Below, one piece after another: positions 30,723-49,846 of a DNA stretch of 64,000 bases (within the stretch, counting starts at the first letter, position 1; each line of letters begins with the position of its first letter). Position numbers and translations under genes: made by a program. The notes under the pieces are model-generated. The model was not told the DNA's origin and did no database searches. It saw only the letters and a list, made by a program, of their open reading frames with translations. Origin of the DNA: a virus; IMG/VR virus record IMGVR_UViG_3300029258_001308, positions 12,806 to 76,805 of that record, one strand, 5' to 3'.

Positions 30723-31601
30723 TTAGTCGAGGGGTCCCAGGTCCTTCCCCAGGTCCTGGACCTCGTCGAGGGTTGCAGCCACGGTCCCGTGATGTCGGAC
30801 AACAGCGGCCGCTGCGAGGTTGGCGAACTTCACGGCCTCGGGTAGAATGACCCCGCGCTCAAGCTGAACAGCCAGAGCAGCGATCACGGTATCTCCCGCG
30901 CCCGTTACGTCGAACACTTCTACCTGATGACCGGGACAGTGGCCACTCGAGCCCTGGTCATACCAGAAGATGCCGTTGGAGCCGTCGGTCACGATGGCTC
31001 GTGTCTCCCATAACTTGGCCAGAGCCTCGGCGCACTCGTCAGCCCGGGCCATCCGGTAGCGGTGACCGAGCATGACGCGTGCTTCGTGCTTGTTGGGCTT
31101 CAGGTAGGTCAAGCCCTTCAGAGCGGGGGTGATTCGCTTAGGATCAACGATCGTTGGAATCCCTCGGCTCTTTAGGGACTCGATCAGCTCGTCTGTAACT
31201 ATCCCGTGCTGGTAGTCCTGAAGGATCACGAACCTTGTATCTTCGATCAGGTCCTCAGGTATCTCAGTGATGCCCGTGTTCTCTCTGGCCCTGTCGATAC
31301 GACACACTACTTGACGGTCGGCTACTATCCTCTGCTTGACCGTAGTCTGACCGGGGATTCGAGTGAAGTCGCACTTGAGTAAGGACTCGAGTCGGAGCCC
31401 GTCCTCGTCGAGGTCCCAGGCTCCAAGGAGACGTGACTTGCCTCCGAGAGTCCGGACATTCTGAGCCACGTTGGCCGCACCGCCAGCCATGTACTCGTGG
31501 TGCTTTGGATAGAGGACGGGTACGGGAGCCGTGGGCTCCAGCCTTCCCGCCATGTGGTGAGAGAAGATGTCCAGGATAGCATCGCCGATTGTCAGGATCA
31601 T
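30723..31601 (-). CDS. HldE/RfaE-type heptose-7-phosphate kinase (PfkB family), kinase domain only
   Basis: IGDAILD, APVPV, GGAANVAQN, TTVKQR, DY.HG, VDPK, KPNKHE, VFDVTGAGDTV. Confidence 0.85.
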   Translation of the reverse strand: MILTIGDAILDIFSHHMAGRLEPTAPVPVLYPKHHEYMAGGAANVAQNVRTLGGKSRLLGAWDLDEDGLRLESLLKCDFTRIPGQTTVKQRIVADRQVVCRIDRARENTGITEIPEDLIEDTRFVILQDYQHGIVTDELIESLKSRGIPTIVDPKRITPALKGLTYLKPNKHEARVMLGHRYRMARADECAEALAKLWETRAIVTDGSNGIFWYDQGSSGHCPGHQVEVFDVTGAGDTVIAALAVQLERGVILPEAVKFANLAAAAVVRHHGTVAATLDEVQDLGKDLGPLD

Positions 31602-32554
31602 GAGTACGCCCTCAGCATCTGAATGGCCATAAGGAAAACCTGCTCTGGCTCGATCGCGTTGAGAATCGAGCACCCAGACTGACGACACTTGCCAGAAATC
31701 TCTTTGGGAGGAAGCAGCTGACACGGAGGCTTGCAGCCTTCACGATGCTCGGTGATCGGGAAGATGGGATGCGTCTTTCGATACGGGTGACAGGTAACCC
31801 ATCCGTTAGTGGACCCGAATAGAGATAGAGTCGGGACATCCAAGAAAGATGCAAAGTGAAGAAGCCCCGAGTCGGGTGTGATCATGAGCGAGCAGCGTTG
31901 AATAAGAGAGGCCACCTTCGTGAAGGAGAGCCGCATGGCCAACGCTCCGGGGAAGTTCCTTAGACGACGTGGTACATGGTCGAACGAGATGATGTTGAGG
32001 CCGGCCTTGTCGAGAAGCTCGGCCAGCTTCCTCCACTTCTCCGGCGGCCAATTCCTGAGAGGATCGGTTGAGTACGGTTCGAGCCCTACGACGATGCCGT
32101 GCGTGTTGACCCAGTTACCGTCGAGCCAGCCTTGAGCCCAGTTCTTCTCGGCCTCGGTTACCCGATAGCAGTCGACCACAAGGGGAACGTCGTAGATGTC
32201 CGAGGCCTCACAGAAACATCTGATCCTTGACTTGTGTCGTTTCTCTCGGAACTCCTTCTCATGTGCCCAGCCGGGACAGTACAGGGAATAGGTGGCGTCG
32301 GCATCATCGGTCTCTTTGAGGTATGGGTATCGCTCGGAGTCGAACGGTCCGTCCTGGGGGCGGCGACGATGGATCGAGGTCTCTGACCAACGATCTACGT
32401 ACGGGCAGTGCTCGACGAGTTCTCGGTAGGTCCGGATGCCGACGTACGTGATCTCGACATCAGGCTGTCTAAGCTTCCAGCCCTTGGCCACCGGGAGTGT
32501 GCAGAGAACGTCGCCTAACCCGCCGGCTTCTCTGAGGAGTCGCACCTTGTACAA
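31598..32554 (-). CDS. Glycosyltransferase family 9 (heptosyltransferase-like)
   Basis: GGLGDVL, RNWP, ITPDSGLLHFA...LFGST, C-terminal Cys cluster. Confidence 0.85.
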   Translation of the reverse strand: MYKVRLLREAGGLGDVLCTLPVAKGWKLRQPDVEITYVGIRTYRELVEHCPYVDRWSETSIHRRRPQDGPFDSERYPYLKETDDADATYSLYCPGWAHEKEFREKRHKSRIRCFCEASDIYDVPLVVDCYRVTEAEKNWAQGWLDGNWVNTHGIVVGLEPYSTDPLRNWPPEKWRKLAELLDKAGLNIISFDHVPRRLRNFPGALAMRLSFTKVASLIQRCSLMITPDSGLLHFASFLDVPTLSLFGSTNGWVTCHPYRKTHPIFPITEHREGCKPPCQLLPPKEISGKCRQSGCSILNAIEPEQVFLMAIQMLRAYS

Positions 32555-33951
32555 GACTGTTCTCCAGCTCTCTCTGTCTGAGCCTGAGCATGGCGTGGCT
32601 CAGCGTTGATCCAATCGCTCTGGGTGGTCTCGCTAAGAATCCAAGCACATTCCTTGAGCCAGACCTTCTTGAACATACAGAGTGCAGGGTCGGAGTTGTG
32701 GATGTCTCCGGTGTGTTGCTTCGAGACTACTCGACACCCTCCACCACAGTAGTTCCGTGCCCAGCACGATGGACACTTCGTTCGACAGTACCACCTGTTG
32801 TCCTTCCACTCTTCTCGAGCTTGCTCGCTGATTCCATAGGCTAGACTTCCGATGGGGTCCACGCCCTCACGGTGACACGGCAGGATATCACCGCTAGGAT
32901 TCACGGCGTAGAATCCCCAGGCAGCTCCACACTCGGAAGGCTGTGGCATTCTCCGAGCCAGCCGTCTCAGCGTGGCTTCGAAGTGGAAGAACCGAGGATT
33001 GTAGCTGGTCTTCCTACGAGACACGAACCACTCGGCGGCCTCGTAGTACTGTCTATTGACAAGCTCTCGATGTTCGTCCGAGGTCCCGAAGATCATCTGC
33101 TTCTCGCCGATATTGTGGCAGGAGGTCTCGGATAGATTCAGAGGCTCGACGGATACTGATCCCGCCATCCCCTTCCTCACCAACTCGTTGAGGAACTCTA
33201 ACCTCGAGACCAGCTGAACGTCGTCGGCCCCGAATGTTGCTCGAAGCGTGGTCCTCTTAGCCAAGCCAGGATAGTCAAGCATCTTTTCGAGGGCCTGCAT
33301 CGTGCTCTCCCAGGAATTGAAGGTGTCTCTCCTGGCCGGGCGATTCTTGTTGTGGATGTCCTCAGGTCCATCTATCGAAATGATCATGGAGAAATTCTGC
33401 TGACTGAGGAAGTCGAGCTTTTCCTTATCGAGACATGTCCCGTTAGTGGTGATATGAAGATTCAGGTACGACTGCCTCATCTCGGCTAATGATCGTGCGT
33501 ACAGGGCTCCTTCCTTGACAAGCTTCCACGACTTGGGAAGAGTGGGCTCCCCACCGAAGAAAGAAATCCCGAAGCGGCCCCTCTTACCAAGCTGAGGAAT
33601 ACCGTTGAAGTAGTGATCGATCGCCTGTTGAAGAACAGTGGGTGTCATGTACTTGAGTTCCTTCGTCGCGGAGTAGTGACGAACGAAGCAGTAACGACAT
33701 CCGAGATTGCAGTCATGGCAGACGTTCAGACAGAGCTGTACCGGGAACGGCCTGACGAAGTAAGGAAAGTTGGGGGCGTCGAAAGAAGCAGCCGGCTCGG
33801 TATCCCACTCCTCTAATTCGAAGAGCTCCATCGAGTTGGGATCGTAAGCTAACCTCTTCCCATGGGTGCGAAGAACGTGTATCCTAGCGTTCTCGGCGGG
33901 GTATCGTTTGAGGCGGGGGGACTTCTCCACCGCAGGGTTCAAGGACTGCAT
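32515..33951 (-). CDS. Radical SAM/SPASM peptide maturase, SCIFF/CteB-like, with N-terminal RRE-like region
   Basis: LCLNVCHDCNLGCRYCF, FFGGEP, TTNG, SIDG; SPASM CGA..Y.VNPSGDILPCH...CPSCWARNYCGGGC...C. Confidence 0.9.
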   Translation of the reverse strand: MQSLNPAVEKSPRLKRYPAENARIHVLRTHGKRLAYDPNSMELFELEEWDTEPAASFDAPNFPYFVRPFPVQLCLNVCHDCNLGCRYCFVRHYSATKELKYMTPTVLQQAIDHYFNGIPQLGKRGRFGISFFGGEPTLPKSWKLVKEGALYARSLAEMRQSYLNLHITTNGTCLDKEKLDFLSQQNFSMIISIDGPEDIHNKNRPARRDTFNSWESTMQALEKMLDYPGLAKRTTLRATFGADDVQLVSRLEFLNELVRKGMAGSVSVEPLNLSETSCHNIGEKQMIFGTSDEHRELVNRQYYEAAEWFVSRRKTSYNPRFFHFEATLRRLARRMPQPSECGAAWGFYAVNPSGDILPCHREGVDPIGSLAYGISEQAREEWKDNRWYCRTKCPSCWARNYCGGGCRVVSKQHTGDIHNSDPALCMFKKVWLKECAWILSETTQSDWINAEPRHAQAQTERAGEQSCTRCDSSEKPAG

Positions 33952-33987
33952 TGTTCTACTCTCCTTTCTTTCTCAACGCCTCTTTAG

Positions 33988-36900
33988 TTAGGGCGAGGAG
34001 ATTGAGTCAACCTTGGCATTGTCAGTGTAGCCAGGTCCTTGTACATTCAGACCGAGAGAGTGGCTCGAGTACTCTCCAGCGACGGCCACGCTTCGAACAG
34101 CCGAGTGTCCGTCGAACTCGGCCTTGACCTGAGTTGGTGTGATGATGAGCTTCAGCGTCCCCGATTTTGAGAAGAGATCAGTCGTCCAGCTTCCTGCCCA
34201 CACGGTCACGTCGGCGTAACCCGAGACCGAGATTCTAGCACCCGTGCGTCCCTCGAAGTACCATTCAGGTTCCTCTCCTTGCCACCGGCCCTGAATCAAC
34301 GCCCACGCGGTCAAACCCTTCCCGCCTTTGACCGAGCCCCAAGCAATATCTGCACTGTAGATCGGGTCGTAGGGATAACCAGAGTATTGTGCGATATAGC
34401 ACGGGAGTGTGAAGGTGGCTGATTGATCGGGGTTCCTTCTCTGATCCGCCCAACTAAGGCTGCCACTCGAATTCCCCGCCTTGAGCTTTACCTCCCCGCC
34501 GACGATTTCGAAGACGGGTGTCTCGGCGTCAATCCAGAGTGAGAGGTCACCGCTGAATCCATCGTTCGGCCACGTCCCGTACTCGTAAGGCTCGGTCGAG
34601 ACACCCTGAGTCTCAGCTGATCCGGAGGTACAGTCGTGATCACAGGTCGTCTCGCATCCGGTGGACTCGCACTGCGACTCGCAGTACATCTCGCAGCAGG
34701 TCTCTTGACCAATGGCTCCGCCCGGGAGCATGATCATGCAGAAGACCATGCAAGCCTGGAGTGCGCAAGGAGGCCCGCCCTGATCTGCGGCCGCGGCGCA
34801 GAGTAGTTCGCACACGTTGACGCAGGACCCTTCACACGCATACTCGCATGTGAACTCGCAGCCGGTCTGAGTCCATATCTCGCAGACCGACTCGCATCCC
34901 GTCTGACACTCGGTCTCACAGGCGGTAAGACATCCGGCCCAGACAGGAAGACGAAGCTCGAACTCGATCTCGTCCATCTTGGCGTCAGCGCCTGCACCGG
35001 GACTGTGCCTCAATCCTACTACGTCGCCTTTCTGACCAGAAAGGAAGTAGTCGGTTAGATCGAGAGAGACCCAGTCTCCACGCTGAAGGTCGAGCTCGGT
35101 TAGATAGGTCTTGAAACTTACTCGTCGACGAAGACGCCTCCGCATAGCCAGCCAGAACGACGCGATGCTAGAGACGTACTGCTTCTGGCCGTAGGCCCAG
35201 AAGTCGTATCGCTCGGCCCTTCTACCATAGGCTGCTTCAGCCGCGGTGTCCCGAACCGTCAGCTCCTTCTCTTCACCACGCTCGTTCCATACTGCCACGA
35301 TCTCCGAAAGGACGTAATCGAAGTCGTCCCACGAGAGCTTCACTGAATCAACCGTGATCTCGTCGTCACCCGTGATAGTAGCGGCGACAGACCCAGCGCC
35401 GTTCCTGAGGAAGCCGATAGTAGCGAGACCGTCTTCCCACTTGAACTCGGACCGAGCCTGGAAGCCCATGTCAGCACAGAGGTCCATGAGGTTTCTTTGA
35501 CTGCCGAGCGCGAAGCCGAACCGCAGCCAGCCAGTCGCGGACTCAACCGATGAGAATGCAGACGTGTCTATCTCCGAGGCGCCCACTCCTCCCCAGGTCT
35601 CGAGGAACTTCTTGATAACGGCGGCGGGATTCTCGATGACAGTTCCCGACCCGTCTCCCACGCTGTCGAGTCCCTCGATGTCAACCTTGATGTCGTTGGT
35701 GGAAATCTGGTAGCCCGGGATGAACTTCGGTGGATTGTAGAACGTGATGGTGGTACAGTTGTGGCCGAGAATCCCGACGAACTGCGAGTCATTGAGGTTC
35801 ACATCGTAGTGTTCAGGGTGGATTACGATGTCGCGGTCTTCCTCGGAATCAGCAACCTGACCGATGAGATACGCGTCTTCCCAGTTCGGATTCGGGATTC
35901 CGGGTACTCCACCGCCAAGGCCGATTCGATTGAGAACCGTCTCGGTGTCGGTCTGGAGCGATAGTAGCTTCTTCCCGTGAACATAGACGTTGTTGACCCG
36001 GGCCGACGGGTACTCGTTCACTATCCAGGTGTACTGATCGAGCAGCCGATAGCACTCAGAGCCCGCGTCATGAGCCGTAGGAATCCCGACGATCGAGTAC
36101 CCATGTCCGTAGGGAAGAGTATAGACATGACCGACACATGTAAAAGTATCGCCTTCGATGAACGTCGGCCCTTCAAGCATGAACTCGGGCATGTAGTAGA
36201 TGGTCTTCGAAGTGCCGTCGTATCTCCAGATCTTTCTCCACTGCCACCCCGCTGCAGAGTAATCGGGTCTCGGAGTATTGGAGACCGAGATGGGAACTTC
36301 TCTGAAGGCGGGATTGATGTACCCGGGGACCCAGGTCTTCACGTAGAACCCGGTGTACGCGTTGTCCCCGTCAGCGGGAAGGTCACCGTCTATGAAGGCG
36401 CCGTTGTACTCCGGGTGAGAGCCCTTGACCGTACCAGTGTAGATCGCTTCGCCTCTAGCTAGAACCGTGAAGGTTCGGCCGTCGATGGTACCTCGAACTA
36501 CTTCCTCATTGATCCGAAGAGTAAGCTCGGTCCCGGGGGCCATATCCTCGAAACCTTCGATGAACCAGTTATCGATCTGAGATGCCGATACCGGGTTCAT
36601 CAATCGCCCAATCTTACCCATTGTGACGTTCACAGGCTCGACCATCTGCGGCTTCCCAACGCAGATGGGAATCATTCGACCCTCGTGATTCTCGGCGATG
36701 TCGGGGAAGTCATCGATCGTGGCCAGCACTCCTACTGTACGATTGTAGTGCACAGCCTTGGAGACGAGGTCAAGCGTGATCTTCCTATTGTTCTCGTCCC
36801 AGTCGAATGGCCCGGAGACGAACCCGTCGATCAGTGTGACAAGGTCAGTCTCGAGAAGCCCGGCCTCGGTCCAGAACTGATACATCGCGACAGGCTTGTC

Positions 36901-37902
36901 CTGGACTTCGATGTCGTCGAAGTAGGAGAGGAGTGAGCGATCGTGGTCCTGGAGTTGGACCTTCATGTCCGTGACCGGGAGCTGTTGATTTCCACGGACA
37001 ATGGCTCGGTCCATGAGACCCCAGTTCACGACTCGTGCGTCCATTCTTCCAACGGCCGCCTTGACTTGGTAGTCGTCGAACGCCTCTCCTATAGCGAGGA
37101 AGGTCTGGCTGATGTTGCCGTCGAACTCGGTCAACCACGGACCGCCGCCATTGTAGTTGCCGACTGCGAGGTTCTTCGTTCCAGTCTGTCGGATGTGCGT
37201 CCCGAGGGAACCCTGCCAAGTTATTGTCTGAGCTACGCCATCGACGTAGATCACGACCTGTTCGTCGGGGGTGGCCTGAGTGAGGTCAACAACAATAGCG
37301 ATGGAGTGCCACGCGTTCAGGGAAGGAGCGGGGAAAGATGCACCCGCCGTGTGGATAGTTGTGCCGACTTTCGTGTCGAGGTTGAACCGGAGGACAGTTG
37401 GCGTGAGGAAGAAGAGGAGCCAGCCGGTCCCGTTCCCCATCTCCGCGAAACATCCAGCGTCGTTCTCTCCATCGGATAGCGCCTTGGCGTTGATGATGAA
37501 GGTGAACTTCTGCTCGTTGTCGAGATCGAACCACGCGTCCGTCTTGTCGGTATGGTAGTTGCTTGTACCTCCCGTGAACTTCAGACTGGTCGTACCGCCG
37601 AATGGATCAGGTGTCGAGGTGTCCCAGATACCGCTGGCTGACAGAGTTAGATCACGAGCGGCCGTACCTTCCTCGTTGTCGGCTGTGACGCCGGAACCTT
37701 CGTCGAATTTCCACATAGCCCCATCGAGTGAGGCATAGTCTGGAAGGTCAGCCCAGTCGAAGTTCCACGGTACAGTGAACTCGGAATCCGAGAACCACCG
37801 TGTCCCCAAGGCACCGCCGGCCATGAGCTTGACAAGATTACGAGGCTTAGCCCCAGACGACAGCGCTTCAGCCTGGGCCCCAGATGAAAGTGTCCGGACC
37901 AC
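33988..37902 (-). CDS. Tail tip/hub protein with LamG-like insertion and Cys-rich tract
   Basis: Follows tape measure and Dit; WHSIAIV...IYVDG...FDGNIS LamG; AEAAYG and LQRGDWV tail-tip motifs. Confidence 0.8.
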   Translation of the reverse strand: MVRTLSSGAQAEALSSGAKPRNLVKLMAGGALGTRWFSDSEFTVPWNFDWADLPDYASLDGAMWKFDEGSGVTADNEEGTAARDLTLSASGIWDTSTPDPFGGTTSLKFTGGTSNYHTDKTDAWFDLDNEQKFTFIINAKALSDGENDAGCFAEMGNGTGWLLFFLTPTVLRFNLDTKVGTTIHTAGASFPAPSLNAWHSIAIVVDLTQATPDEQVVIYVDGVAQTITWQGSLGTHIRQTGTKNLAVGNYNGGGPWLTEFDGNISQTFLAIGEAFDDYQVKAAVGRMDARVVNWGLMDRAIVRGNQQLPVTDMKVQLQDHDRSLLSYFDDIEVQDKPVAMYQFWTEAGLLETDLVTLIDGFVSGPFDWDENNRKITLDLVSKAVHYNRTVGVLATIDDFPDIAENHEGRMIPICVGKPQMVEPVNVTMGKIGRLMNPVSASQIDNWFIEGFEDMAPGTELTLRINEEVVRGTIDGRTFTVLARGEAIYTGTVKGSHPEYNGAFIDGDLPADGDNAYTGFYVKTWVPGYINPAFREVPISVSNTPRPDYSAAGWQWRKIWRYDGTSKTIYYMPEFMLEGPTFIEGDTFTCVGHVYTLPYGHGYSIVGIPTAHDAGSECYRLLDQYTWIVNEYPSARVNNVYVHGKKLLSLQTDTETVLNRIGLGGGVPGIPNPNWEDAYLIGQVADSEEDRDIVIHPEHYDVNLNDSQFVGILGHNCTTITFYNPPKFIPGYQISTNDIKVDIEGLDSVGDGSGTVIENPAAVIKKFLETWGGVGASEIDTSAFSSVESATGWLRFGFALGSQRNLMDLCADMGFQARSEFKWEDGLATIGFLRNGAGSVAATITGDDEITVDSVKLSWDDFDYVLSEIVAVWNERGEEKELTVRDTAAEAAYGRRAERYDFWAYGQKQYVSSIASFWLAMRRRLRRRVSFKTYLTELDLQRGDWVSLDLTDYFLSGQKGDVVGLRHSPGAGADAKMDEIEFELRLPVWAGCLTACETECQTGCESVCEIWTQTGCEFTCEYACEGSCVNVCELLCAAAADQGGPPCALQACMVFCMIMLPGGAIGQETCCEMYCESQCESTGCETTCDHDCTSGSAETQGVSTEPYEYGTWPNDGFSGDLSLWIDAETPVFEIVGGEVKLKAGNSSGSLSWADQRRNPDQSATFTLPCYIAQYSGYPYDPIYSADIAWGSVKGGKGLTAWALIQGRWQGEEPEWYFEGRTGARISVSGYADVTVWAGSWTTDLFSKSGTLKLIITPTQVKAEFDGHSAVRSVAVAGEYSSHSLGLNVQGPGYTDNAKVDSISSP
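34630..34932 (-). repeat. CxxxC(E) tandem peptide repeat, 21 Cys in 101 aa
   Basis: CLTACETECQTGCESVCE...CEFTCEYACEGSCVNVCELLC...CEMYCESQCESTGCETTCDHDC. Confidence 0.9.
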
Positions 37903-38267
37903 TAGCCCACTACCTCCAGTTGAAAGCGGATAGACCAGCCAGAGTCACGATCCTCGGTGAAGTCGAGAGTCGCATTGACGAACTTCACTGTCCAGTCAAC
38001 ATCGTTGTGATCTCTGAACGTGAACTCCTCCATGATGCCATCGGACGTATTCTCGAAGAAGTCCTCGATGTCATCCTTCTCGTCGTTGGTCAGATAGGTC
38101 AGACGGATGTCAAGGTACTCGACCTTGATACCCTTGTCGTAGTTGAACCTGGTCCCGCCTCGAGTCCGGCCGAGCACTTGGAACATGGTATGCCTGTTCA
38201 TGTTCCCGAACTCTGGAGAACGAGAGATGTCTTTGTCGACGGCACCTTTGATGAAATGGCATCCCAT
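37902..38267 (-). CDS. Distal tail protein (Dit-like)
   Basis: Position after tape measure; FF...G..EFTFRDH...VKF pattern. Confidence 0.65.
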   Translation of the reverse strand: MGCHFIKGAVDKDISRSPEFGNMNRHTMFQVLGRTRGGTRFNYDKGIKVEYLDIRLTYLTNDEKDDIEDFFENTSDGIMEEFTFRDHNDVDWTVKFVNATLDFTEDRDSGWSIRFQLEVVG

Positions 38268-38270
38268 CGT

Positions 38271-40793
38271 TTATATCCTCCCCCGCTTCCGAGCCGTGGC
38301 AATCTCGGGGATGATGACTGAACGAGTCAGCTCTCTCCCGACAGGCTGGCCAAGCAGCGTGAGATTGATGTCACCTTCGTAGTGGGTCGTGATGTGAGTC
38401 GGAGAATGATGCTCCGTAGTACCACGACCCGGTCCTGCCTCGGCGCCAGGCTCCCGTGTAGTGGGGCTTCCGGCGATCGAGACGCCAAGTTCGCCAAGGC
38501 CTGCCAGCTCTTCCCTCATCTTCGCAATGAAGGCTCGCATCTGAGCCTCAGCTTCTGGTAGCCCAACAAGCTCGACGTTCCACTGAAGATGTCTCTCAGC
38601 AAACGTCTTCAGATCAGAGAGGTCCTTCCGGATATTCTCGAAGGTATGCTGTGCCTCTTCCAGCAGTCCCTTAGCGCCCTCCTCTTGCTCCTCCCAGGCG
38701 ATCTCGCCCAGTTCCTGCAGGTCCTTCATTCCCTCGATGGCTGCCTCTCTGAAGTTCTCGACGATGCCGTACCCAGCCTCGCCTTCTGCTATCTGGACAT
38801 CAGCAATGTTGCGATAGAGTTCGGCCGACTCCTGCTGAAGTCGAGCGAATTCATCGTAGTCGGATCGAGCCAGTGCAGCGGCAGCTTCTTGAGCACGGGT
38901 TCTGGCCAGATAGTACTCAGAGACTGCTCGTGTTCCTTCGTCAAGGCCGCCCAACTGCAGGTCAAGGATGGAGCGATCGATGGAACGAGACCAGTCGGCG
39001 TGTCGTTCCTGGAGGTTCTGAAGTCTGTCCTGATGTCCCTTGACCTCGTCGAACTGTTCTTTCAGCGCGTCCCGAAGATAGCTTATCTGGTCGATGTAGT
39101 TTTTCTTGAAGTCCTGCGTGGCTCTTTTCCAGTGATCTCTCTTCATGGCAAGAACCGCGGCAGCATGTCGCTTCTGTTCTGCGACGAGATTCGCCTCAGC
39201 GTCAGCTATCTTTCTGAGGTACTCCTTCGCAAGTTCTGCGTTCTTCTTTCGTGAAGCCATTCTCTTGATGAGCTCGATGTTGCCTTCCTTCATGGCCTTG
39301 TTGAGAATCTCTTCCTGACGGAGAGCCTCGGCTCGTGCAGCCGCCTGAATCTTGGCTACGTCCTCGTGAGCCTTCATCTCCTTCGGGGCCTTGGCTATCA
39401 GATCGGCGATCTTTTCGTCAAGCTGGGTGTACTTGGCGATGAGCGACCCGACAGCAAAGCCCGCTGCTCCTACCGCGATTCCCATAGCTGCCCAAGGATG
39501 GGCCTTCGCTAGGTTGACCAGGTGAGGCAGGCCGTCCATGGCTGTGAAGGTCAGGCGGAGCAGCTTGTCGGTGAGCCAGACGACCTTCCCACCGTACTTG
39601 GCTATGAAGCTCACCCCTGTCGAGAGCGCGAAGGTCACGGCCGCGATGGACAAGGCTGTTGCACCCCAAGCCGCAATAGTCGCAGCGTTCTCCTTGACCC
39701 AGCTCATCCACTCGGCCTTGTTCTTCTCTACCCAGTCGGTGAATTCGATGAGCTTCGGTAGAAGAGCCTCGCCGAGTGTGATCATGACGTCCATGAAGAA
39801 CGACTTGATCTTCTTCAGCGCACGGCCAGCGGTCTTGGCCATCTTTTCGTACGCCTCTGCCGATGCACCTTGGCTCTTGACGTTTGCTTCGATGATACGA
39901 CCGAACTCGTCAGCCTGCTTTCCAGCCAGGGATGACACGGCTGTGAACGCACGAACATTCGGGAAGAGGGCAGCCAGCGCTTCAACATTATCACCAGCTG
40001 CCTCTTCTATCTCACGAAGAGCGACGCCAAGACCCTTGGACTTGAGAGCTGTAGCCGAGAGCTCGACGCCGAGTTCTTGGGCAATCTCCTGGGCTTCTTT
40101 CGTCGGAGAGATGAAGGTAACGATGGCCTGCCTGACCGCAGTCACTGCTTCGTCGAATTGGATACCACCCTTGGTCAGGGTAGCAAGCGAGGCCGTCAGC
40201 TCTTCGAGTGGGATGCCGGCGGTAGCAGCGATACCCGTCACCCGACCCAACCCGGAAGCCAGCTGTGGGAAGGTCAGCACGCCCTCTTTGACCGTGGAGA
40301 AGAAGATGTCCGAGACCCGCTCAGCCTGATCAGTACCCATCCCGTAGGCGTTGAGTGTCTGGACGATCCCACGAAGAGACGTGTTCACGTCGGTGACGCC
40401 CGCAATAGCCGCGCGGTTCGCGACGCTCAGGAGCTCGATGGACTCGGTCGCATCAACACCAGCTGACAAGGTGTTGTAGAGCGCGGTGGTCATCGTACTA
40501 TGTGACTCGCCGAATTCGACCGACAGCGATCGGACGCCGTCCTCGAGATTCTGCATATCGACGAGTGTCGTGTCCACCAGTGTAGAGACCTCAGCCATCC
40601 CGGTCTCGAAGGAGGTAGCAAAGTAGAGCGCTGCACCTCCGGCTGCACTTAGGGCTAGGGCCATCTTCTTGGAGGCGCTAGCGACTTTGTCAGCCGTATT
40701 CTCGACGGTCTTGGCCACCTTGTCGAAGTTCTCGTAGAACTCCGAGGTGTCAGCGGTGACCTCGGCGACCAGCTTTTCCACGAACGTTGGCAC
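38271..40793 (-). CDS. Tape measure protein (TP901 family)
   Basis: FETGMAEVSTL...ALY..LSAG...NAYG; long helical Ala-rich ORF; probable GTG start at 40793. Confidence 0.9.
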   Translation of the reverse strand: MPTFVEKLVAEVTADTSEFYENFDKVAKTVENTADKVASASKKMALALSAAGGAALYFATSFETGMAEVSTLVDTTLVDMQNLEDGVRSLSVEFGESHSTMTTALYNTLSAGVDATESIELLSVANRAAIAGVTDVNTSLRGIVQTLNAYGMGTDQAERVSDIFFSTVKEGVLTFPQLASGLGRVTGIAATAGIPLEELTASLATLTKGGIQFDEAVTAVRQAIVTFISPTKEAQEIAQELGVELSATALKSKGLGVALREIEEAAGDNVEALAALFPNVRAFTAVSSLAGKQADEFGRIIEANVKSQGASAEAYEKMAKTAGRALKKIKSFFMDVMITLGEALLPKLIEFTDWVEKNKAEWMSWVKENAATIAAWGATALSIAAVTFALSTGVSFIAKYGGKVVWLTDKLLRLTFTAMDGLPHLVNLAKAHPWAAMGIAVGAAGFAVGSLIAKYTQLDEKIADLIAKAPKEMKAHEDVAKIQAAARAEALRQEEILNKAMKEGNIELIKRMASRKKNAELAKEYLRKIADAEANLVAEQKRHAAAVLAMKRDHWKRATQDFKKNYIDQISYLRDALKEQFDEVKGHQDRLQNLQERHADWSRSIDRSILDLQLGGLDEGTRAVSEYYLARTRAQEAAAALARSDYDEFARLQQESAELYRNIADVQIAEGEAGYGIVENFREAAIEGMKDLQELGEIAWEEQEEGAKGLLEEAQHTFENIRKDLSDLKTFAERHLQWNVELVGLPEAEAQMRAFIAKMREELAGLGELGVSIAGSPTTREPGAEAGPGRGTTEHHSPTHITTHYEGDINLTLLGQPVGRELTRSVIIPEIATARKRGRI

Positions 40794-40962
40794 GCTTCTT
40801 CCTCTCCTTATCGTCCTCACGGTTGCGCAGGGAATGGTACGCAACCATGTACTGCTGGCTAGTCAACGGCAGCGAGTAGAATCTCTCGAGGTCTATCTTG
40901 AACCGATCGCATGTCGCAAGAACAAGATAGAGCGTCGTCCTACCGCTGCCGTCTATTCCCCC
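40750..40962 (-). CDS. -1 frameshift extension of the tail assembly chaperone (gpGT-like)
   Basis: GGGGGAA immediately before TAG; -1 frame open for 70 codons (GIDGSGRTTLYLVLATCDRFKID...). Confidence 0.75.
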   Translation of the reverse strand, partial: GGIDGSGRTTLYLVLATCDRFKIDLERFYSLPLTSQQYMVAYHSLRNREDDKERKKRANVRGKAGRRGHR

Positions 40963-43284: not shown

Positions 43285-43923
43285 CTATACAATCCCCAGT
43301 TGTGGGACGTCGTTGTGGTAGTTGGCGAGGAGACGGTCCACCGCTTTGTTCCCGGTCGTCCCCCCTGTTTCTGTCCCGCCAGATTCCTCGAGAGTGAACG
43401 AGAAGTCGCCAAGCTTCGCCGACTTGATGTCACCCTCGGTCGAGATACCCTCTGTGATGTCGTCCATCTTCTGAGCCGCCAAGATGGCGCAAGCCTTCGC
43501 GATGTTTCGGGGAGTCTTTTTCCATCCCCACTTCCCGGTGATCTGGACGTTCTGATTACCCTTGGGCCAGATCGGAGCATCGTCTCCCCACCGAGCACTT
43601 GCTCGCAGAGAGATGTCGTACTCGAGCGTGACCCTTCGTTCGTAGACCTTGTAGTCGCTAGAGTCTACGTCAGTGGTCGAGCCATCGGCCGGGTCCACGA
43701 TCACGATGGATGTGATCTCGAGACACCTCAGCAGAGTGAGCTCCGGGAACAGAATGTCCGAGTGCCCAGTCCCATCGAAGTTGAAGGTCTTGTCGTCAGG
43801 CTCGAAGTGATCATCGCACTCTTCGTCGATCATCTCCATGGCCTCACGGATGGCTTGCTCGAACTCCTTGTTTGTCTCACCAGAGTCGTGAAACTTTCGT
43901 ACGTCTGCTATTCGGCAGTACAT
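43285..43923 (-). CDS. Head-tail adaptor
   Basis: MYC.IADV, IDEEC...F, WPKG.QNV.ITG.WGW..TP..I..AC. Confidence 0.75.
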   Translation of the reverse strand: MYCRIADVRKFHDSGETNKEFEQAIREAMEMIDEECDDHFEPDDKTFNFDGTGHSDILFPELTLLRCLEITSIVIVDPADGSTTDVDSSDYKVYERRVTLEYDISLRASARWGDDAPIWPKGNQNVQITGKWGWKKTPRNIAKACAILAAQKMDDITEGISTEGDIKSAKLGDFSFTLEESGGTETGGTTGNKAVDRLLANYHNDVPQLGIV

Positions 43924-44960
43924 GGGACGCCCTCCATGATCTCCACTACCGCGTCAGCCACCTGCTCCGGAGTGATGAGCTCGTAGCAGGGGGTGTCCCG
44001 AAAGCACTTCTTCCTGTAGCATCCAAGGCAGTCAGAGTCGGGAACTAGCTTGACGCCTCGGCCATACATATCGATGTCGTCGGCTGGAGTAGAACCGAAG
44101 ATGGTCACGACTCTTCGTCTCAGAGCAATACCCAAGTGCATGCCGAACGAATCCATCGTGACCACGCAAGAGCATGAGGCCACCCAGCCAACGTAGTCCA
44201 TGATCGATCGTCTCTGTTCTTGCATCTCCGGCTTGTAACCTCGCTCCTTCAGGAGCTCAGCTAACTTCTCCCAGCCTTTCCACTTCTTGAAGAATCGATC
44301 TCCGGCCATGTAGTTCAGGCCGACCTTGCCAATTTCCTCCTTGGCCTTGAAGCCCGTGAAGAACGGGTAGTCGTCAGGCTCCTCTACTCCTATCATCTTA
44401 GCACAGAGCTGCTGGTAGGTCAAGCAGCTCAGTCTCTTGGCTTCGTCGTCGATGCCGAGCTGGAAGGCCTCGCGAGCAGAGTCGGACATGGCGGCGGTGT
44501 TCCCGTACTGATCCATGCCGAACCCGTATCTCTCCTCGGCCTCGACAGCCACGGCTATGGCCGTACTCTCAGGCTCCTTATCCAAGCAGATCACGGCCTG
44601 GAACTTCATGACCATGATCGAGACCTGGCTCTTCCAGTTGTAGGGAATCAGCTTGTCAATCCCCTTGATTCTTCGCAGAATCTGAAACCCTTCGTCTGAG
44701 GTCAGCCATGTGATGTGGCAGTCGCTCCCGTACTTGGCCCTGATCGGACCAAGCAGAGAGGCGGTTCTGACCACATCCCCCATGGCGGCAAGCTTGATAA
44801 GCAGGACTCGAGTTCGAGTCGGCCTATAGTGCTTGCATCCTAGGCATCTCTGCCCGAACTTCTTGTGGGGCCAGCAAGGCTTGAACCCCTTGAAGTAGCG
44901 GCAGTCCGTGAGGATGCCCTCGAACTTGGCAACGTCTGCTAGTCGTCTACCGGTACCCAT
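43908..44960 (-). CDS. Glycosyltransferase family 9
   Basis: DCRYF.G.KPC, LIKLAAMGDVVRT, VTMDSFGMHL...IFGST, CLGCY..C. Confidence 0.85.
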   Translation of the reverse strand: MGTGRRLADVAKFEGILTDCRYFKGFKPCWPHKKFGQRCLGCKHYRPTRTRVLLIKLAAMGDVVRTASLLGPIRAKYGSDCHITWLTSDEGFQILRRIKGIDKLIPYNWKSQVSIMVMKFQAVICLDKEPESTAIAVAVEAEERYGFGMDQYGNTAAMSDSAREAFQLGIDDEAKRLSCLTYQQLCAKMIGVEEPDDYPFFTGFKAKEEIGKVGLNYMAGDRFFKKWKGWEKLAELLKERGYKPEMQEQRRSIMDYVGWVASCSCVVTMDSFGMHLGIALRRRVVTIFGSTPADDIDMYGRGVKLVPDSDCLGCYRKKCFRDTPCYELITPEQVADAVVEIMEGVPCTAE

Positions 44961-45778
44961 CTGTCTGGATTAGTCTCCATCCAAGCCCGAAGGCGCCCTT
45001 GGAACTTCTCCTCGTCCTGCAGCTGAAGCTGCCGACGCTGCTGGGAGTGCAGAGGATTAGCCGAGTCTCGAGACCCGCCACCCTCGGCCTCCATGTGCCA
45101 CGACCTGACCCAAGGAAGATACAGACATTTGAACCCGGCGAAGTAGAGCCGGAGTGAAACGTCTGTCTCCTCCCGATGGCCCAGGTTTGTACACCATGTA
45201 GCGAACCCGCCCACGTCTTGGAGAGCCTGCTTCCAGTAGATGAACCCGCCGTGCATGTGGCAAACTTCGATGGGCTCATTGTGGTCGATCCAGTGCTGCT
45301 GCATATCGTAGGGCTCGAGGATCATCCCCGTCTCGATCTTCTTCCGGGCAAACCCGTTCTGACTGGGACCCTGATTCAGTATTCTCCCACGATGCGCGTT
45401 GAGGAGACATCCTCCAGCCGCTGCCACCTCTGTCCTGTCCTGATCCACGATGAAGTCGTGCAGAAGCTGGATATAGTCGCGAGGAACAACTATATCATCC
45501 TCGTGACGGATGCAGAGCTCGGCCTGGGCCGCCTCCATGGACTGCTGATAGGCGAAGGGTATTCCTTCGTTGGTACCACGAACCACGTTCACCCTGACCC
45601 CGTCATCCTCCAACATCCTGATCAGCAGTCTGATATGGTAGTGCGAGAGCACGTCGGGGTCCGAGTCGTCAACGATGACCAGCTCCCAGTCCTTGTGGGT
45701 CTGGAAGACAAGGCTAGCCAGAGCGGCGGACAAGTAGTTCGGCCGATTGCGAGTGATGATATGGAAGGACACTCTCAT
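44939..45778 (-). CDS. Glycosyltransferase family 2
   Basis: VS.HIITRNR, LVIVDDS, HEDD, GGF, EETD. Confidence 0.85.
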   Translation of the reverse strand: MRVSFHIITRNRPNYLSAALASLVFQTHKDWELVIVDDSDPDVLSHYHIRLLIRMLEDDGVRVNVVRGTNEGIPFAYQQSMEAAQAELCIRHEDDIVVPRDYIQLLHDFIVDQDRTEVAAAGGCLLNAHRGRILNQGPSQNGFARKKIETGMILEPYDMQQHWIDHNEPIEVCHMHGGFIYWKQALQDVGGFATWCTNLGHREETDVSLRLYFAGFKCLYLPWVRSWHMEAEGGGSRDSANPLHSQQRRQLQLQDEEKFQGRLRAWMETNPDRWVPVDD

Positions 45779-45780
45779 AG

Positions 45781-46380
45781 CTAGCTCCTTGTCACTGCGA
45801 TTAGGATGAAGTCCTTACCCTTGGTATACTTCACCCTGTTGACCTCGAAGTCGTTGGGAACTCCCTCGAAGAGTCTCTTCACGGACTCCTCTGTTACATG
45901 CCATTCGTGCGAAGGGTTGTCAACCATGGCCGGATCGTACCCCTCCTTCGCGAATGGCATCGTGATGACAACCTTCTTAGAGGCTACCCGAATAGCCTCG
46001 AAGACAACCTGTCTAGCATCCTCGATCGAGATGTGCTCCAGCATCTCGGCGATGACCACGGTGTCGAACTCCTCGTGATGGAAGGGAAGCCCAAAGGTGA
46101 CGTCCATACAGAAGTACTTGCAGTCAGGGTATCTGAGCTTGGCTGCTCTGAGTCTCTCTCGATCAATGTCAACACCGACCCGAACTCCCGCCAACCTTCC
46201 TAAGATGTAGCCCTCTGCACAGCCGAGATCGAGTATCGACCCCTCTGCTTTTCGGATGATCCAGTTGACCCTTTCCCTCTGGGCCTCTGATATATAGCCA
46301 CCATCATCCGACGGAGGCTGACGAATCTCGTCCAGCCTGGCAACATCAAGGTGGACCCGATAGTCTTCCGCGTCACTCAC
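45781..46380 (-). CDS. Class I SAM-dependent methyltransferase
   Basis: ILDLGCAEG, VGVDI, LPF...FDTV..EMLEHI. Confidence 0.9.
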   Translation of the reverse strand: MSDAEDYRVHLDVARLDEIRQPPSDDGGYISEAQRERVNWIIRKAEGSILDLGCAEGYILGRLAGVRVGVDIDRERLRAAKLRYPDCKYFCMDVTFGLPFHHEEFDTVVIAEMLEHISIEDARQVVFEAIRVASKKVVITMPFAKEGYDPAMVDNPSHEWHVTEESVKRLFEGVPNDFEVNRVKYTKGKDFILIAVTRS

Positions 46381-47678
46381 TTGTGTCTTCCCTCATCTCG
46401 CATATAGTCCATCAGCCTCTTGCGGGCCTGGACTAAGGCGGGGACGTCCATCTCGGGAGTCCTAGCCGCGAAGCCTTCGTTCGTATCCTCCCAACCCAGA
46501 AGCCAGTATCGAGACCAGTCCCTTGAAAAGATCTCGATCTCGAACTCCTCGGGATGATCGTAGATGGGAGAGCCAGGATATGGCTGGAACGTCGAGAGCG
46601 TGCAGCGATCAGGCTGAACCCTCTCGATGAAGTCTACCGTATCCTGGACCGAGCTCGGAGATTCTCCCGGAAGCCCGATGATGAAGTAAGCTTTTGAGAC
46701 CATGCCGACTTCCTTAGTCCATGCGATGGCCTGCTCAGCTTGCTCTATCGAGACACCCTTCCGGATATGATTGAGAATCCGCTGCGACCCGGACTCCACT
46801 CCGAACGCCACCTCCACGCAACCCGCATCACGGAGGGTGACGAGATTCGGTCGGGTGGTAAGATCGCATCTCAAATGCGTTCTGAACTTCAGCTCCGTCT
46901 TCCGGAACTGGTCGCAGATCGCCGTCAATCTCTCGGGCTTGAGTCCGATGATCTCGTCGACAAGTCGCACTTCTGTCACACCAAGTATCTTCTTCATCAG
47001 CCGCAGCTCTTCGTATACCCACTCGGCAGAGTGGAGCCTGACCTTCCCCTCCCAGGTCGCATTGGAACAGAAGGCACAGCGATACGGACAGCCACGAGAT
47101 GTGGAGATACATGAGGCTCGCTCTCCTTCTTCTACGAGTTCATAGGAGACAGCCGAGTCTTCAGCGATGTCCTGCCAAGCGAGGTGCGGAAGTGAGTCAA
47201 GCTCCTTGATGCTCTCCCGCTTCGTGTTGACATAGATCGCTCCCCATCCATCCTTGTAAGCCAAGCCATCGATCACGTCCAATGGCTTCCCGGCTACTAT
47301 CTCGGACAAGGTCTTCTCGCCTTCTCCGAAGACGGCGTAGTCGAAGTCGGTCTTGAGGAGAGTATCCTTCGCAAGCACTGAGGCGTGCGCCCCTCCTATG
47401 ATTCGATAAGCCGAGGAACGATGCTCCTTCAGCCAGGTGGCCACTCGGGCCGCGTAACCCATGTCCCCGGTGGTGGCCGAGACACCGAAGTAGTGAGCCT
47501 CGGGAATGACGTCACCCCACTGCTCCTCGGTGTATCTTCCTGACAGATCAACGATGCTGACTTCGCAGTCAACGGTCCGTCTGAGATACGCAGCTAGAGC
47601 GAGAAGACCTAGAGGAGCCTGGAGCCGCTCGTTCCAAAGCATCTTGTTGGGAAGCCTGATGAGAGCTACTTGATTCAT
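46377..47678 (-). CDS. Cobalamin-binding radical SAM enzyme (class B methyltransferase-like)
   Basis: PLGL..LA, IGGAHAS, GEGE, TSRGCPYRCAFC, GVESGS, FIIGLPGE. Confidence 0.9.
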   Translation of the reverse strand: MNQVALIRLPNKMLWNERLQAPLGLLALAAYLRRTVDCEVSIVDLSGRYTEEQWGDVIPEAHYFGVSATTGDMGYAARVATWLKEHRSSAYRIIGGAHASVLAKDTLLKTDFDYAVFGEGEKTLSEIVAGKPLDVIDGLAYKDGWGAIYVNTKRESIKELDSLPHLAWQDIAEDSAVSYELVEEGERASCISTSRGCPYRCAFCSNATWEGKVRLHSAEWVYEELRLMKKILGVTEVRLVDEIIGLKPERLTAICDQFRKTELKFRTHLRCDLTTRPNLVTLRDAGCVEVAFGVESGSQRILNHIRKGVSIEQAEQAIAWTKEVGMVSKAYFIIGLPGESPSSVQDTVDFIERVQPDRCTLSTFQPYPGSPIYDHPEEFEIEIFSRDWSRYWLLGWEDTNEGFAARTPEMDVPALVQARKRLMDYMRDEGRHK

Positions 47679-49846
47679 CACGGTAGCTCTCCCCTCAGAG
47701 CCTCGATGACCCGCTCCGAAGTGATGGCCTTCATGCAAACCTTACCTTGCCCACGGATACATCGAGTCAGCCAGTCGCTGGCTTCCCACCAGCAGGGAGG
47801 ACACACATGTGCATTGATGTTGATGTTGTCCAAGTACCCGAAGACTCGCTCGTCGGTGGGACCGAAAAGAACCAGGCTCCGGGTATGCACGGCCCTGGCC
47901 AAGTGGACCAGCCCACCCTCCGGGCCCATGTGAAGCCTAGCTCCCTCCAGTACTCCCGCCAACTCGTCGACTCTGAACTTGCCTAGCATCGGCTCAGCCA
48001 ACGGAAGCTTAGACTCCCCAGACCGGCCGACCTGGACAACGTTGAAGCCTTGATCCTTGACGAACCCAATGACCTCGGCCCATCGCTCAGGCTCCCATAC
48101 TTTTACTGTCTCCCCTTCGTTCGAGGAGTTGTTCACGGTGACATAGGGCTGAAGCTTCTCGAGTGGCTTCCTCTTCTTGCCTTGAACGTCCCCCAACTTC
48201 CAGGACAGCCGAAGATCGTCGCCGCCTAGCGGGACACCCAACATTCTCGCGGCAAACTCGGTGATGTGAAGCCCAGAGAGGCCGATACAGTGATACCGCA
48301 TCGGACGACCTACAGACTCAAGCAACTTCCAGTATCCCTCATAGAAAGGAGAGAGGAAGGAGCCAAGCATCTCCACGGCCTTGTCGGAGAAGAGAATCTC
48401 GGGAGTGCAGAGACAATCCATGTAGATGTCGTAATCGCGACCATACCTCTGCCGGGCTGCGCTGTTGTCGACAGCGATCTGACGAACAGAATCTACAGTG
48501 TTGTCCTTGGCGAACAAGTCTCGATGCTGCCCGATGTTCAACTCAACGAAGGCCTGAGGGTAGGCTCGCTTAGCTGCTTTCGCAATCCCGAAAGAGATCA
48601 GCGTATCTCCCAATCCCGCTACCTCAGTGATCCCTATCTTGAGCCCGGTCCCCGTTCGATCACTGGCCTCAGCCACCGCGATGGGTCTTCGAGGTGGAGA
48701 CTTGGACCGGGTCATAAGCTCGAGATTCGGGACCTCCATGATTCGAGGATCATCGAGAAGACGGAGAACAGACTGGAAGGCCAGGTGGGCCGAGATCTTC
48801 CCGACACAGTCGTGGCCAAGCCGACAGTCGTCTCGATGCGTGAAGCAAGGAGCGCAAGGAAGGTCTGTTTCAAGAGCTATGAAGCCAGACTCATGAGTGA
48901 CCCGAAGCCGAGCGGGAAAAGGACCGTACAGACCCACTGCGGGGACACCCAGTGCAGAGGCCACCTGTATGAACCCTGAGTCGGGGCCGACTAGACAGCT
49001 AGACCTTTCGATGATCGCTGCGGCCTGAGCTGGGGTTGTCTTCCCCGTCAAGTTGATACAGTCGGGCACATCCTTGAGATGTTTCTCAAGAGCGACGCAC
49101 GTATAGCCCTTCTCGTTCAACTTCTTGATCAACTGCTTGCAATGCCTGAAGGGCCACGAACGAGCTGAAGACGATGCCGCAAGATGGACGGCGATGATCT
49201 TCTCGCGAGGTACATCCACCAACTGCTTATCTGCCCAAGCCCTGGCCGACTCTGATACGAAGACATCAGGGTTCCGATCACTCGGGGCTTCTATCCCGAG
49301 CCAGTCGGCATAGCAGTCGACCATGTGAAGTTGGTCGGCGTTTGGGTTGTTCTCGACTGCGCCGGCCAGGTCGATGGTGAAGTCGAACTCGTCGGTGTGC
49401 GCTAGCGCTGTCCGTGAGGACAGAACCTTATTGACGTACCTGAATCGAAGGAACGAGTGCCACTCCTGGAATGCAGCCAAGCTGATCGAGAGAGTGGGAA
49501 ACCTCTTCTTCAGATCCCTCATCAGTGGAGTTAGGAGAAGTATGTCCCCTATCCCACCATGGCGAATCAGGAGGAGAGCCTTCCCATTGAGATCAGCCGG
49601 GAGGACGTCTACGGGTGGACGGTCCTTGATTCGAATTCCACGACGCTCTAGCTGAAGAACGTCGTCGTGGGTCGCGTCAAGGAGAGTGAAGCTCGGCTTA
49701 CCCTTACCGTCTTTCTGATTGAGTAGGTATTCCGAGTCGCGATCATCCGCTATCTGGCGGACCTCGCCCTTCTTCACGGAGAACTTGTTCCGTGAGAAGG
49801 GCAAGGTCGTTGCCAGCGAAAGACCATCATATCTGAGGGTCTTCAT
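47678..49846 (-). CDS. Tandem double GT9 glycosyltransferase with a short N-terminal extra domain
   Basis: GGIGDIL...GPDSGFIQVA..LYGP and AGLGDTL...GPEGGLVHLA..LFGPT. Confidence 0.85.
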   Translation of the reverse strand: MKTLRYDGLSLATTLPFSRNKFSVKKGEVRQIADDRDSEYLLNQKDGKGKPSFTLLDATHDDVLQLERRGIRIKDRPPVDVLPADLNGKALLLIRHGGIGDILLLTPLMRDLKKRFPTLSISLAAFQEWHSFLRFRYVNKVLSSRTALAHTDEFDFTIDLAGAVENNPNADQLHMVDCYADWLGIEAPSDRNPDVFVSESARAWADKQLVDVPREKIIAVHLAASSSARSWPFRHCKQLIKKLNEKGYTCVALEKHLKDVPDCINLTGKTTPAQAAAIIERSSCLVGPDSGFIQVASALGVPAVGLYGPFPARLRVTHESGFIALETDLPCAPCFTHRDDCRLGHDCVGKISAHLAFQSVLRLLDDPRIMEVPNLELMTRSKSPPRRPIAVAEASDRTGTGLKIGITEVAGLGDTLISFGIAKAAKRAYPQAFVELNIGQHRDLFAKDNTVDSVRQIAVDNSAARQRYGRDYDIYMDCLCTPEILFSDKAVEMLGSFLSPFYEGYWKLLESVGRPMRYHCIGLSGLHITEFAARMLGVPLGGDDLRLSWKLGDVQGKKRKPLEKLQPYVTVNNSSNEGETVKVWEPERWAEVIGFVKDQGFNVVQVGRSGESKLPLAEPMLGKFRVDELAGVLEGARLHMGPEGGLVHLARAVHTRSLVLFGPTDERVFGYLDNININAHVCPPCWWEASDWLTRCIRGQGKVCMKAITSERVIEALRGELP

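Follow-up and report, generated by a model that had tools for sequence, protein, structure and literature searches.

The DNA analysed here, a window of 64,000 nucleotides (nt), is part of a 76.8-kb IMG/VR record of an uncultured tailed phage (IMGVR_UViG_3300029258_001308), which is about 71% complete. The minus strand of the window encodes a gpJ-like tail-tip or central fibre protein of 1304 amino acids (aa) with an embedded cysteine ladder (P0001; 33988..37902) and, downstream of it, a CteB-like radical S-adenosylmethionine (SAM)/SPASM enzyme of 478 aa (P0002; 32515..33951), the proposed maturase of the ladder. An earlier prediction, made by a model from the letters of this DNA and called the original prediction below, had paired the two genes and placed the enzyme gene 36 nt downstream on the same strand, which is borne out by the sequence. 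The 36-nt spacer (33952..33987, minus strand) contains an AAGGAG 8 nt before the ATG of the enzyme and shows no terminator-like site when read. Judged from these signals, i.e., the short distance, a separate ribosome-binding site and no intervening terminator, both genes are probably co-transcribed.

Tail-tip protein, cysteine ladder and enzyme

The ladder covers aa 991–1091 of P0001 (34630..34932, minus strand) and contains 21 Cys residues with a period of four, mostly in C-E/Q-x-x units. A script count finds 14 overlapping CxxxC motifs and 11 'CE' pairs among the 21 Cys, in agreement with the original prediction, which had reported 21 mainly CxxxC-spaced Cys residues in this segment, 11 of them before Glu. 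The distances between successive Cys are 4, 4, 4, 4, 8, 4, 4, 4, 4, 4, 11, 5, 4, 14, 1, 4, 4, 5, 4 and 4. Since the other 1203 residues of P0001 contain only seven Cys (0.6%), the presence of 21 Cys in 101 residues is far beyond chance. At least 90% of 51 homologues with about 30% identity retain C991, C995, C1019, C1023, C1027, C1031 and C1035. Across 65 ladder-bearing proteins, the family unit is C-[E 49%/Q 26%]-[T/S]-[G/S/A] with a dominant spacing of four, and individual ladders comprise between about 5 and more than 100 units. An artefact of low-complexity repeat DNA could be ruled out as the origin of the ladder, because Tandem Repeats Finder reports no repeat and the Cys columns are conserved at about 30% identity. 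Two proteins at other loci (numbered with L in this analysis; proteins carry P and alignments A) are nearly all ladder: L005:1492-3435 encodes 648 aa with 126 consecutive Cys at spacings of 3–5 in C-E-T/V-G/S units, and L010:1448-3664 encodes 739 aa with 105 Cys in G-C-T-x units. The latter composition indicates that a Cys need not be followed by Glu.

A six-frame scan of the whole 76.8-kb record revealed no second Cys-ladder open reading frame (ORF), large or small, no small Cys-rich peptide gene and no SCIFF-type small precursor ORF (about 45 aa, six Cys). The other Cys-rich frames of the record are zinc-finger-like proteins or off-frame artefacts. The statement of the original prediction that a separate small Cys-rich precursor gene is lacking nearby is thus upheld and extends to the whole record, at its completeness of about 71%.

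The ladder lies between a conserved hub core and a variable distal domain. The hub core (aa 288–990; 34933..37041, minus strand) was delimited by phmmer and the alignments A2, A4 and A7, and closes with the motif RLPxxxGC. A phmmer search of 1.84 billion representative proteins returned 963 homologues of this core, 82 of them with E ≤ 1e-30. No relative of the tail protein was detected in GenBank phages, whose enzyme relatives are distant (at most 30% identity), and single-protein scans of IMG/VR gave an identical 13-kb contig as sole match. Near the N-terminus, P0001 carries an insertion of about 245 aa (aa ~41–287; 37042..37782, minus strand) that is missing from the aligned homologues, which match aa 1–40 and resume at aa 288. 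The insertion has no match in Pfam; by eye, it has the appearance of a concanavalin/LamG-type lectin. In an AlphaFold2 model of aa 944–1304 (mean predicted local distance difference test score, pLDDT, 49), only the last beta domain ahead of the ladder is confident, with a pLDDT of 90–97. The C-terminal domain (aa 1092–1304; 33991..34629, minus strand) is not conserved in homologues and is modelled with a pLDDT of about 30; from its position only, it is presumed to be the distal or receptor-binding end. An ESM Atlas look-up of this domain returned only unnamed clusters with scores reachable by chance.

P0001 as a whole has no Pfam or PHROG match, and as a single sequence it matches the TipJ family NF040662 weakly (E 0.014; 13.9 bits, cut-off 140). 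The family profile A4, built from 12 homologues, matches the lambda Tip attachment protein J (8IYK, 9E7M) with E 1e-5 over 166 residues, corresponding to gpJ residues 329–499. The L006 homologue matches phrog_31 (central tail fiber J) with E 8e-4. P0001 follows the tape measure gene and a gene for a 121-aa protein, an order that is repeated in L008 and L089 and in the ladder-less loci L090–L092 and L113–L119. The position after the tape measure, the weak TipJ match and the gpJ profile match together identify P0001 as a gpJ-like tail-tip or central fibre protein. With lambda gpJ it shares the genomic position and the succession of a large hub, a stalk and a distal domain, but a Cys ladder is missing from gpJ, lambda lacks an enzyme of this kind, and the sequence similarity is confined to about 166 residues.

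The enzyme P0002 contains IHVLRTHGKRLAYDPNSMELF and C81-x3-C85-x2-C88, and these three Cys are invariant in 42 homologues. Its SPASM pattern is complete (C341-x12-G-x4-C359, C393-x2-C396-x5-C402-x3-C406, C425), as the original prediction had read it; in alignment A1, C341, C359, C393, C402, C406 and C425 are invariant and C396 is nearly so. Both PF04055 (radical SAM; 53.8 bits, cut-off 29.5) and TIGR04085 (SPASM; 46.1 bits, cut-off 27) score above their cut-offs. The best NCBIfam match is the SCIFF maturase family TIGR03974 (188.2 bits, cut-off 425), ahead of PapB NF047865 (169.8 bits, cut-off 340), a ScfB-related orphan family (169 bits) and the nif11-peptide maturase (161 bits), the last two also far below their cut-offs. 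QhpD TIGR03906 reaches 133.3 bits (cut-off 453), and the CXXX-repeat maturase TIGR04115 45.7 bits (cut-off 350) over aa 74–249 only. As it scores under the cut-off of every named family, P0002 is not a member of the SCIFF, PapB or QhpD family.

The closest match of P0002 in the PDB is CteB (5WGG, E 8e-38). The AlphaFold2 model of the enzyme, based on 42 homologues, has a pLDDT of 86.5 and superimposes on CteB with Z 37.1 and a root-mean-square deviation of 2.4 Å over 392 residues (model 21–443, chain 1–450); Foldseek gives E 1e-24 for the same pair. The next folds are the ChlB maturase (Z 30) and anSME (Z 29). The SCIFF/CteB type named in the original prediction therefore stands for the fold and for the closest family and structure; it does not stand as family membership. 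The original prediction had also described an N-terminus resembling a RiPP recognition element (RRE; RiPP, ribosomally synthesised and post-translationally modified peptide). Alignments to the family libraries begin at aa 63–73, and neither Pfam nor NCBIfam yields a PqqD/RRE match for the N-terminus. Its first 60 residues are confidently modelled as five beta strands, located at residues 16–60, and lack the winged-helix helices, although the structural alignment reaches back to CteB residue 1. An RRE is therefore present as a remnant at best.

The clade of the enzyme is large and unnamed, with 1562 matches; the nearest share 35–41% identity and one, P0006, shares 70%. Several clade enzymes (P0087, P0094, P0108, L018:9971-14434 and L011:9752-12394) have intein/homing-endonuclease domains (PF14528, PF05203, PF07591) or frames of 2–3 times the normal length, suggesting that mobile inteins have repeatedly invaded this phage enzyme gene.

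Co-inheritance of ladder and enzyme

Gene neighbourhoods were taken from viral, metagenome and genome collections. The ladder directly follows RLPxxxGC in 67 of the top 150 core matches and in nearly all matches with E ≤ 1e-30, and weaker homologues do not carry it. Downstream DNA is available for 12 ladder-bearing gpJ-like loci (the window, L006, L008, L012, L087, L088, L099, L100, L101, L103, L104 and L126), whose tail proteins share 25–59% identity. All 12 encode a clade enzyme downstream on the same strand, usually adjoining the ladder gene and at a distance of 2.8 kb in one case and 6.6 kb in another. Complete copies of the enzyme score about 400–590 bits on the clade hidden Markov model (HMM), and the L012 copy, cut by the contig end, scores 284. 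The independent ladder-less set with downstream DNA consists of L093, L094, L112, L113, L114 and the L115–118 group. None of these six loci encodes a clade enzyme, the L115–118 group having only an unrelated radical SAM protein of 26 bits. Fisher's exact test gives about 5e-5 for 12/12 versus 0/6 and, by script, 8e-5 for 11/11 versus 0/6, both values ignoring shared ancestry. This comparison across relatives had been fixed beforehand as one able to refute the pairing, and its outcome is favourable. A functional link between enzyme and ladder is accordingly rated as highly likely, and the constant co-occurrence of both in related phages indicates that the phage probably cross-links its own tail chemically.

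In the ladder-less control loci, the only Cys-dense frames are Cys-rich ORFs on the reverse strand. They were ruled out as ladders, because they lie opposite to the tail genes and the forward tail-tip proteins are ladder-less.

The reverse view gives a similar picture: wherever a viral contig with a clade enzyme includes upstream DNA, a protein with a Cys ladder is encoded close to the enzyme. The carrier of the ladder is not gpJ-like in every case. The L048 carrier matches the baseplate family Tail_P2_I, those of L005 and L010 are unassigned, and the unassigned non-gpJ carriers span 648–2670 aa, with 2670 aa in L007 and 1528 aa in L018. In the 164-kb record to which L011 belongs, the ladder is found 11 kb upstream of the enzyme on the same strand. 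The proximity of clade enzymes to ladders in differing tail proteins suggests that the ladder is a portable module that travels with the enzyme. Viral enzymes of intermediate score (L013, L015, L016 and L017; 250–310 bits on the clade HMM) show no Cys ladder in the surrounding DNA at hand.

These data also bear on an alternative in which the ladder stays unmodified in a trimeric fibre, where it would form a column of metal ions, Fe–S clusters or disulfides, while the enzyme acts on another virion protein, on a sugar nucleotide together with a GT9-family glycosyltransferase and a kinase encoded downstream, or on a host molecule. Metal binding by phage tail tips and fibres is well known, with a 4Fe-4S cluster in lambda gpL and Fe ions on the axis of the T4 gp37 needle. 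AlphaFold2 predicts the ladder as weakly helical, and such helices would align the Cys residues on one face; the operon is also rich in sugar enzymes. Nevertheless, this alternative leaves the joint gain and loss of ladder and enzyme clade (12/12 versus 0/6) unaccounted for, as well as the occurrence of the same enzyme clade after ladders in unrelated tail proteins. In addition, clade SPASM enzymes of known function act on Cys-containing peptides, and the ladder resembles a known SCIFF substrate. An unmodified ladder is therefore considered improbable, with modification of the ladder by the adjacent enzyme as the preferred reading.

Cellular relatives of the enzyme provide a reference for this resemblance. 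The enzyme alignment was scanned over one genome per species (185,579 species) and returned mostly Clostridia; the tail-protein alignment gave no match in the same genomes. The enzymes of 80 cellular loci score about 295 bits on the clade HMM and are canonical SCIFF maturases. In 65 of the 80, a small Cys-spaced ORF and no large one is found nearby on the same strand, and the cellular examples listed all end in GCGECQTSCQSACKTSCTVGNQ, the canonical SCIFF arrangement. The phage ladder and the cellular SCIFF peptide agree in period and in their preference for Glu/Gln/Thr/Ser around Cys, so that the ladder has the appearance of a SCIFF core that was multimerised and inserted into a structural protein. 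The sole exception among the 80 loci is L126 (5416-13672), on a contig of a planctomycete metagenome-assembled genome, where the genes are arranged as in the phages: the gene of a gpJ-like ladder protein of 1391 aa is followed after 14 nt by that of the enzyme, and a GT9 gene, divided between two frames, is also present. L126 could belong to a prophage or to a phage contig that was binned wrongly, and it serves as a lead to a planctomycete host group and no more.

The likeness to a multimerised SCIFF core, together with the absence of a separate precursor from the record, would also suit a true RiPP precursor that is first modified and then excised to give a free bioactive peptide, with the tail protein as a mere carrier. 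The operon, however, contains no protease or exporter gene, and folded or conserved protein flanks the ladder on both sides. Its position between hub and distal domain is fixed across homologues of 25–59% identity, and a variation in length from about 5 units to over 100 is more in keeping with a spacer than with a defined product. Release of a peptide is thus very improbable.

Proposed chemistry and its relation to known systems

Modification of the ladder inside the structural protein, with formation of thioether links, is on balance the favoured course, by a modest measure of confidence. In the proposed mechanism, the enzyme would modify the ladder in place within the 1304-residue protein, either nascent or folded. 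A substrate Cys would be coordinated at an auxiliary cluster, as in CteB, and the 5'-deoxyadenosyl radical derived from SAM would take a side-chain hydrogen from a neighbouring residue, upon which the thioether would form. The Cys sulfurs would thereby be joined to side-chain carbons, most likely of the Glu/Gln after each Cys, and repetition of this step along the ladder would generate a chain of small rings. Candidate acceptors are the Glu/Gln at position +1 of the same or of the next Cys, the latter option corresponding to the i+5 pattern that the original prediction attributed to CteB. Cys–Glu thioethers and the i+5 register are features that we infer. The rings would stiffen the stalk and guard it against proteases and reduction. 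As the ladder sits at the stalk position of gpJ, leading from the hub to the distal domain, a rigid stalk resistant to proteases and reduction is the likely product. The GT9 enzyme and a heptose kinase-like protein may add a sugar to the ladder protein or to another part of the virion.

Thioether chemistry is favoured because the SCIFF maturase, PapB and QhpD, which are among the best-scoring named families, are all thioether-forming. The enzyme could also modify the ladder by a different radical SAM chemistry, i.e., formylglycine formation as by anSME, epimerisation, C–C links or priming of glycosylation for GT9. Consistent with such a reaction, P0002 reaches the cut-off of none of the families that form thioethers, its fold is next closest to those of anSME and the ChlB maturase (Z 28–30), and position +2 of the ladder units is often occupied by Ser/Thr. 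In 11 loci, the enzyme gene is followed by a GT9 gene, namely in the window and 10 further ones (L005, L006, L009/L048, L011, L014, L088, L099, L100, L104 and L126), and one database protein is an enzyme–GT9 fusion (P0114, 780 aa). On the other hand, the five best named families are all Cys-targeting peptide maturases, and the top three are named thioether or ranthipeptide maturases. CteB is well above anSME (Z 37 versus 29; E 8e-38 versus 6e-12), the ladder closely mimics a SCIFF core, and GT9 is missing within 10 kb in five clade loci with downstream DNA (L007, L010, L018, L087 and L103). A reaction other than thioether formation is therefore regarded as rather unlikely.

Several points weigh against thioether stapling of the ladder as proposed here. 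Only six negative loci are available and all loci are related, so the association statistic overstates their independence. With a record that is 71% complete, a precursor gene could lie in the missing part. The enzyme is about 25% identical to CteB and below the cut-offs of all characterised families, and thus the type of reaction is not assured. The helices that an RRE normally has for leader binding are missing from its N-terminal domain, which leaves substrate recognition without an explanation. Fibres are trimeric, and a Cys ladder on the threefold axis could bind metals or form disulfides. Finally, the conserved GT9 partner hints at a pathway that goes beyond simple stapling. A co-fold of the enzyme alignment A1 with the ladder-start alignment A7, run without controls, scored 0.01 against a mark of 0.32 and is evidence neither way.

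Among described systems, the SCIFF maturases (CteB/ScfB, TIGR03974, 5WGG) are the closest. Shared features are the radical SAM core with a full SPASM domain in the same fold (Z 37.1), the period and flavour of the substrate, for which the cellular core is GCGECQTSCQSACKTSC, and the adjacency of substrate and enzyme genes. In contrast to SCIFF systems, the phage enzyme has a score (188 bits) far below the cut-off of 425, and of the N-terminal domain for leader binding only a beta sheet is left. Instead of a 45-aa leader-plus-core peptide, the phage substrate is a stretch within a virion protein of 1304 aa; its ladder has 21 Cys, and up to more than 100 in relatives, compared with six in SCIFF, and the setting is a viral late operon, often with GT9.

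PapB is a SPASM enzyme that makes several thioethers from Cys to Asp/Glu side chains in the repeated C-x3-D motif of PapA, giving freyrasin. Its family NF047865 is the second-best match of the phage enzyme (170 bits), although below the cut-off of 340. Unlike PapA, the phage substrate is a large structural protein, and the acidic residue directly follows Cys (C-E-x-x), whereas it stands four residues after Cys in PapA. QhpD, also a SPASM enzyme, places Cys–Asp/Glu thioethers in the QhpC subunit of quinohemoprotein amine dehydrogenase, which is retained in the working complex. This is a precedent for a modified protein that is not released as a natural product, but the phage enzyme is below the QhpD cut-off of 453, and QhpC is a small dedicated subunit with three links that is cellular and not part of a virion. 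The CXXX-repeat system (TIGR04115) likewise pairs a radical SAM/SPASM enzyme with a target that has Cys at every fourth residue. The phage enzyme, however, matches its maturase only in the N-terminal radical SAM core and belongs to a separate clade, and no CXXX-repeat target family of Pfam or NCBIfam matches P0001 at E ≤ 0.1. A general definition of ranthipeptides is given in PMC12373016.

The original prediction knew of no described phage system of this kind. A literature search of full texts, covering few subscription journals, yielded no paper in which a phage tail or virion protein is modified by a radical SAM enzyme and none that describes such a system. The enzyme class and the substrate motif are known, and the kind of substrate and its biological role would be new. 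Distinctive features are the CteB/PapB-like clade, a ladder within the gpJ-like protein itself, ladder-less relatives as a clean contrast and the frequent GT9.

Radical SAM/SPASM maturases are known for their action on small secreted peptides, with QhpD acting on a small enzyme subunit. If the proposed modification is true, RiPP-type chemistry builds a virus particle and works within the chain of a protein longer than 1000 residues, with no evident leader, which would widen the known substrate range of these maturases. It would also constitute a new class of covalent tail reinforcement beside the isopeptide cross-links of HK97-type capsids and offer protein engineers a leaderless, repeat-based stapling tag. 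RiPP finders that seek small precursors would miscall or miss such clusters, and phage annotators would list the enzyme among auxiliary metabolic genes. The link of ladder and enzyme within one protein family provides a clean experimental system that consists of a 150-residue fragment and one enzyme. A broader and more tentative proposal is that of a widespread uncultured phage lineage in which a CteB-like enzyme staples the ladder of the central fibre and a dedicated GT9 glycosylates it, which would yield a covalently stapled stalk with a coat of sugars; ladder and enzyme would form a portable module acquired jointly by different tail proteins.

Late operon and sugar genes

The late structural operon, on the minus strand, begins at about 58 kb and extends down to 30.7 kb. 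Its head end contains genes for the portal, a MuF-like head morphogenesis protein, the prohead protease and, as the likely major capsid protein, a 328-aa member of phrog_1623, a family of virion structural proteins. An 857-aa ORF among the head genes (52261-54834, minus strand) has no match in Pfam, PHROGs or NCBIfam. The capsid genes are followed by a cassette for sugar and methyl transfer and then by head–tail adaptor, head closure and tail completion proteins. At the tail end, the order is tape measure, 121-aa protein, 1304-aa protein, radical SAM/SPASM enzyme, GT9 and a PfkB-fold kinase. The tail length tape measure protein (857 aa; 38271..40844, minus strand) matches phrog_991 and 18 other tape-measure families of PHROG, with a best E of 1e-58, and marks the start of the tail-tip genes. 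The small conserved tail protein of 121 aa (37902..38267, minus strand), encoded between the tape measure and the tail-tip genes, has no match in scans of the family libraries. Its BLASTP homologues are located directly upstream of the tail-tip homologue in L006, L008, L087, L089, L097, L100 and L106, and farther upstream in L086 and L088.

The GT9-family glycosyltransferase encoded after the enzyme (P0125, 318 aa; 31598..32554, minus strand) is heptosyltransferase-like. It matches PF01075 with E 6e-17 and 62.2 bits, above the cut-off of 22, and its nearest structures are 3TOV and WaaC; its scores are below the cut-offs of the equivalog families for lipopolysaccharide heptosyltransferases I, II and III. 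The original prediction, whose interpretation is upheld in part, did not mention this conserved partner. The pathway may include glycosylation. The last gene of the operon encodes a stand-alone heptose-7-phosphate kinase-like protein of 333 aa with a PfkB fold (30723..31724, minus strand; PF00294, E 2e-33). Against TIGR02198 (rfaE_dom_I, the heptose-7-phosphate kinase domain of HldE), it scores 210 bits, below the cut-off of 345.

Five modification genes lie between the capsid genes and the head–tail adaptor (43908-49846, minus strand). They encode a 722-aa double-GT9 protein, a B12-binding radical SAM protein (HpnJ/PhpK-like), a SAM methyltransferase, a GT2 and a further GT9. One GT9 domain of the 722-aa protein matches the model of the Aah/TibC protein O-heptosyltransferases with 40 bits, below its cut-off. 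Together with the kinase at 30723-31724, these modification genes suggest glycosylation of virion proteins with a methylated heptose-type sugar.

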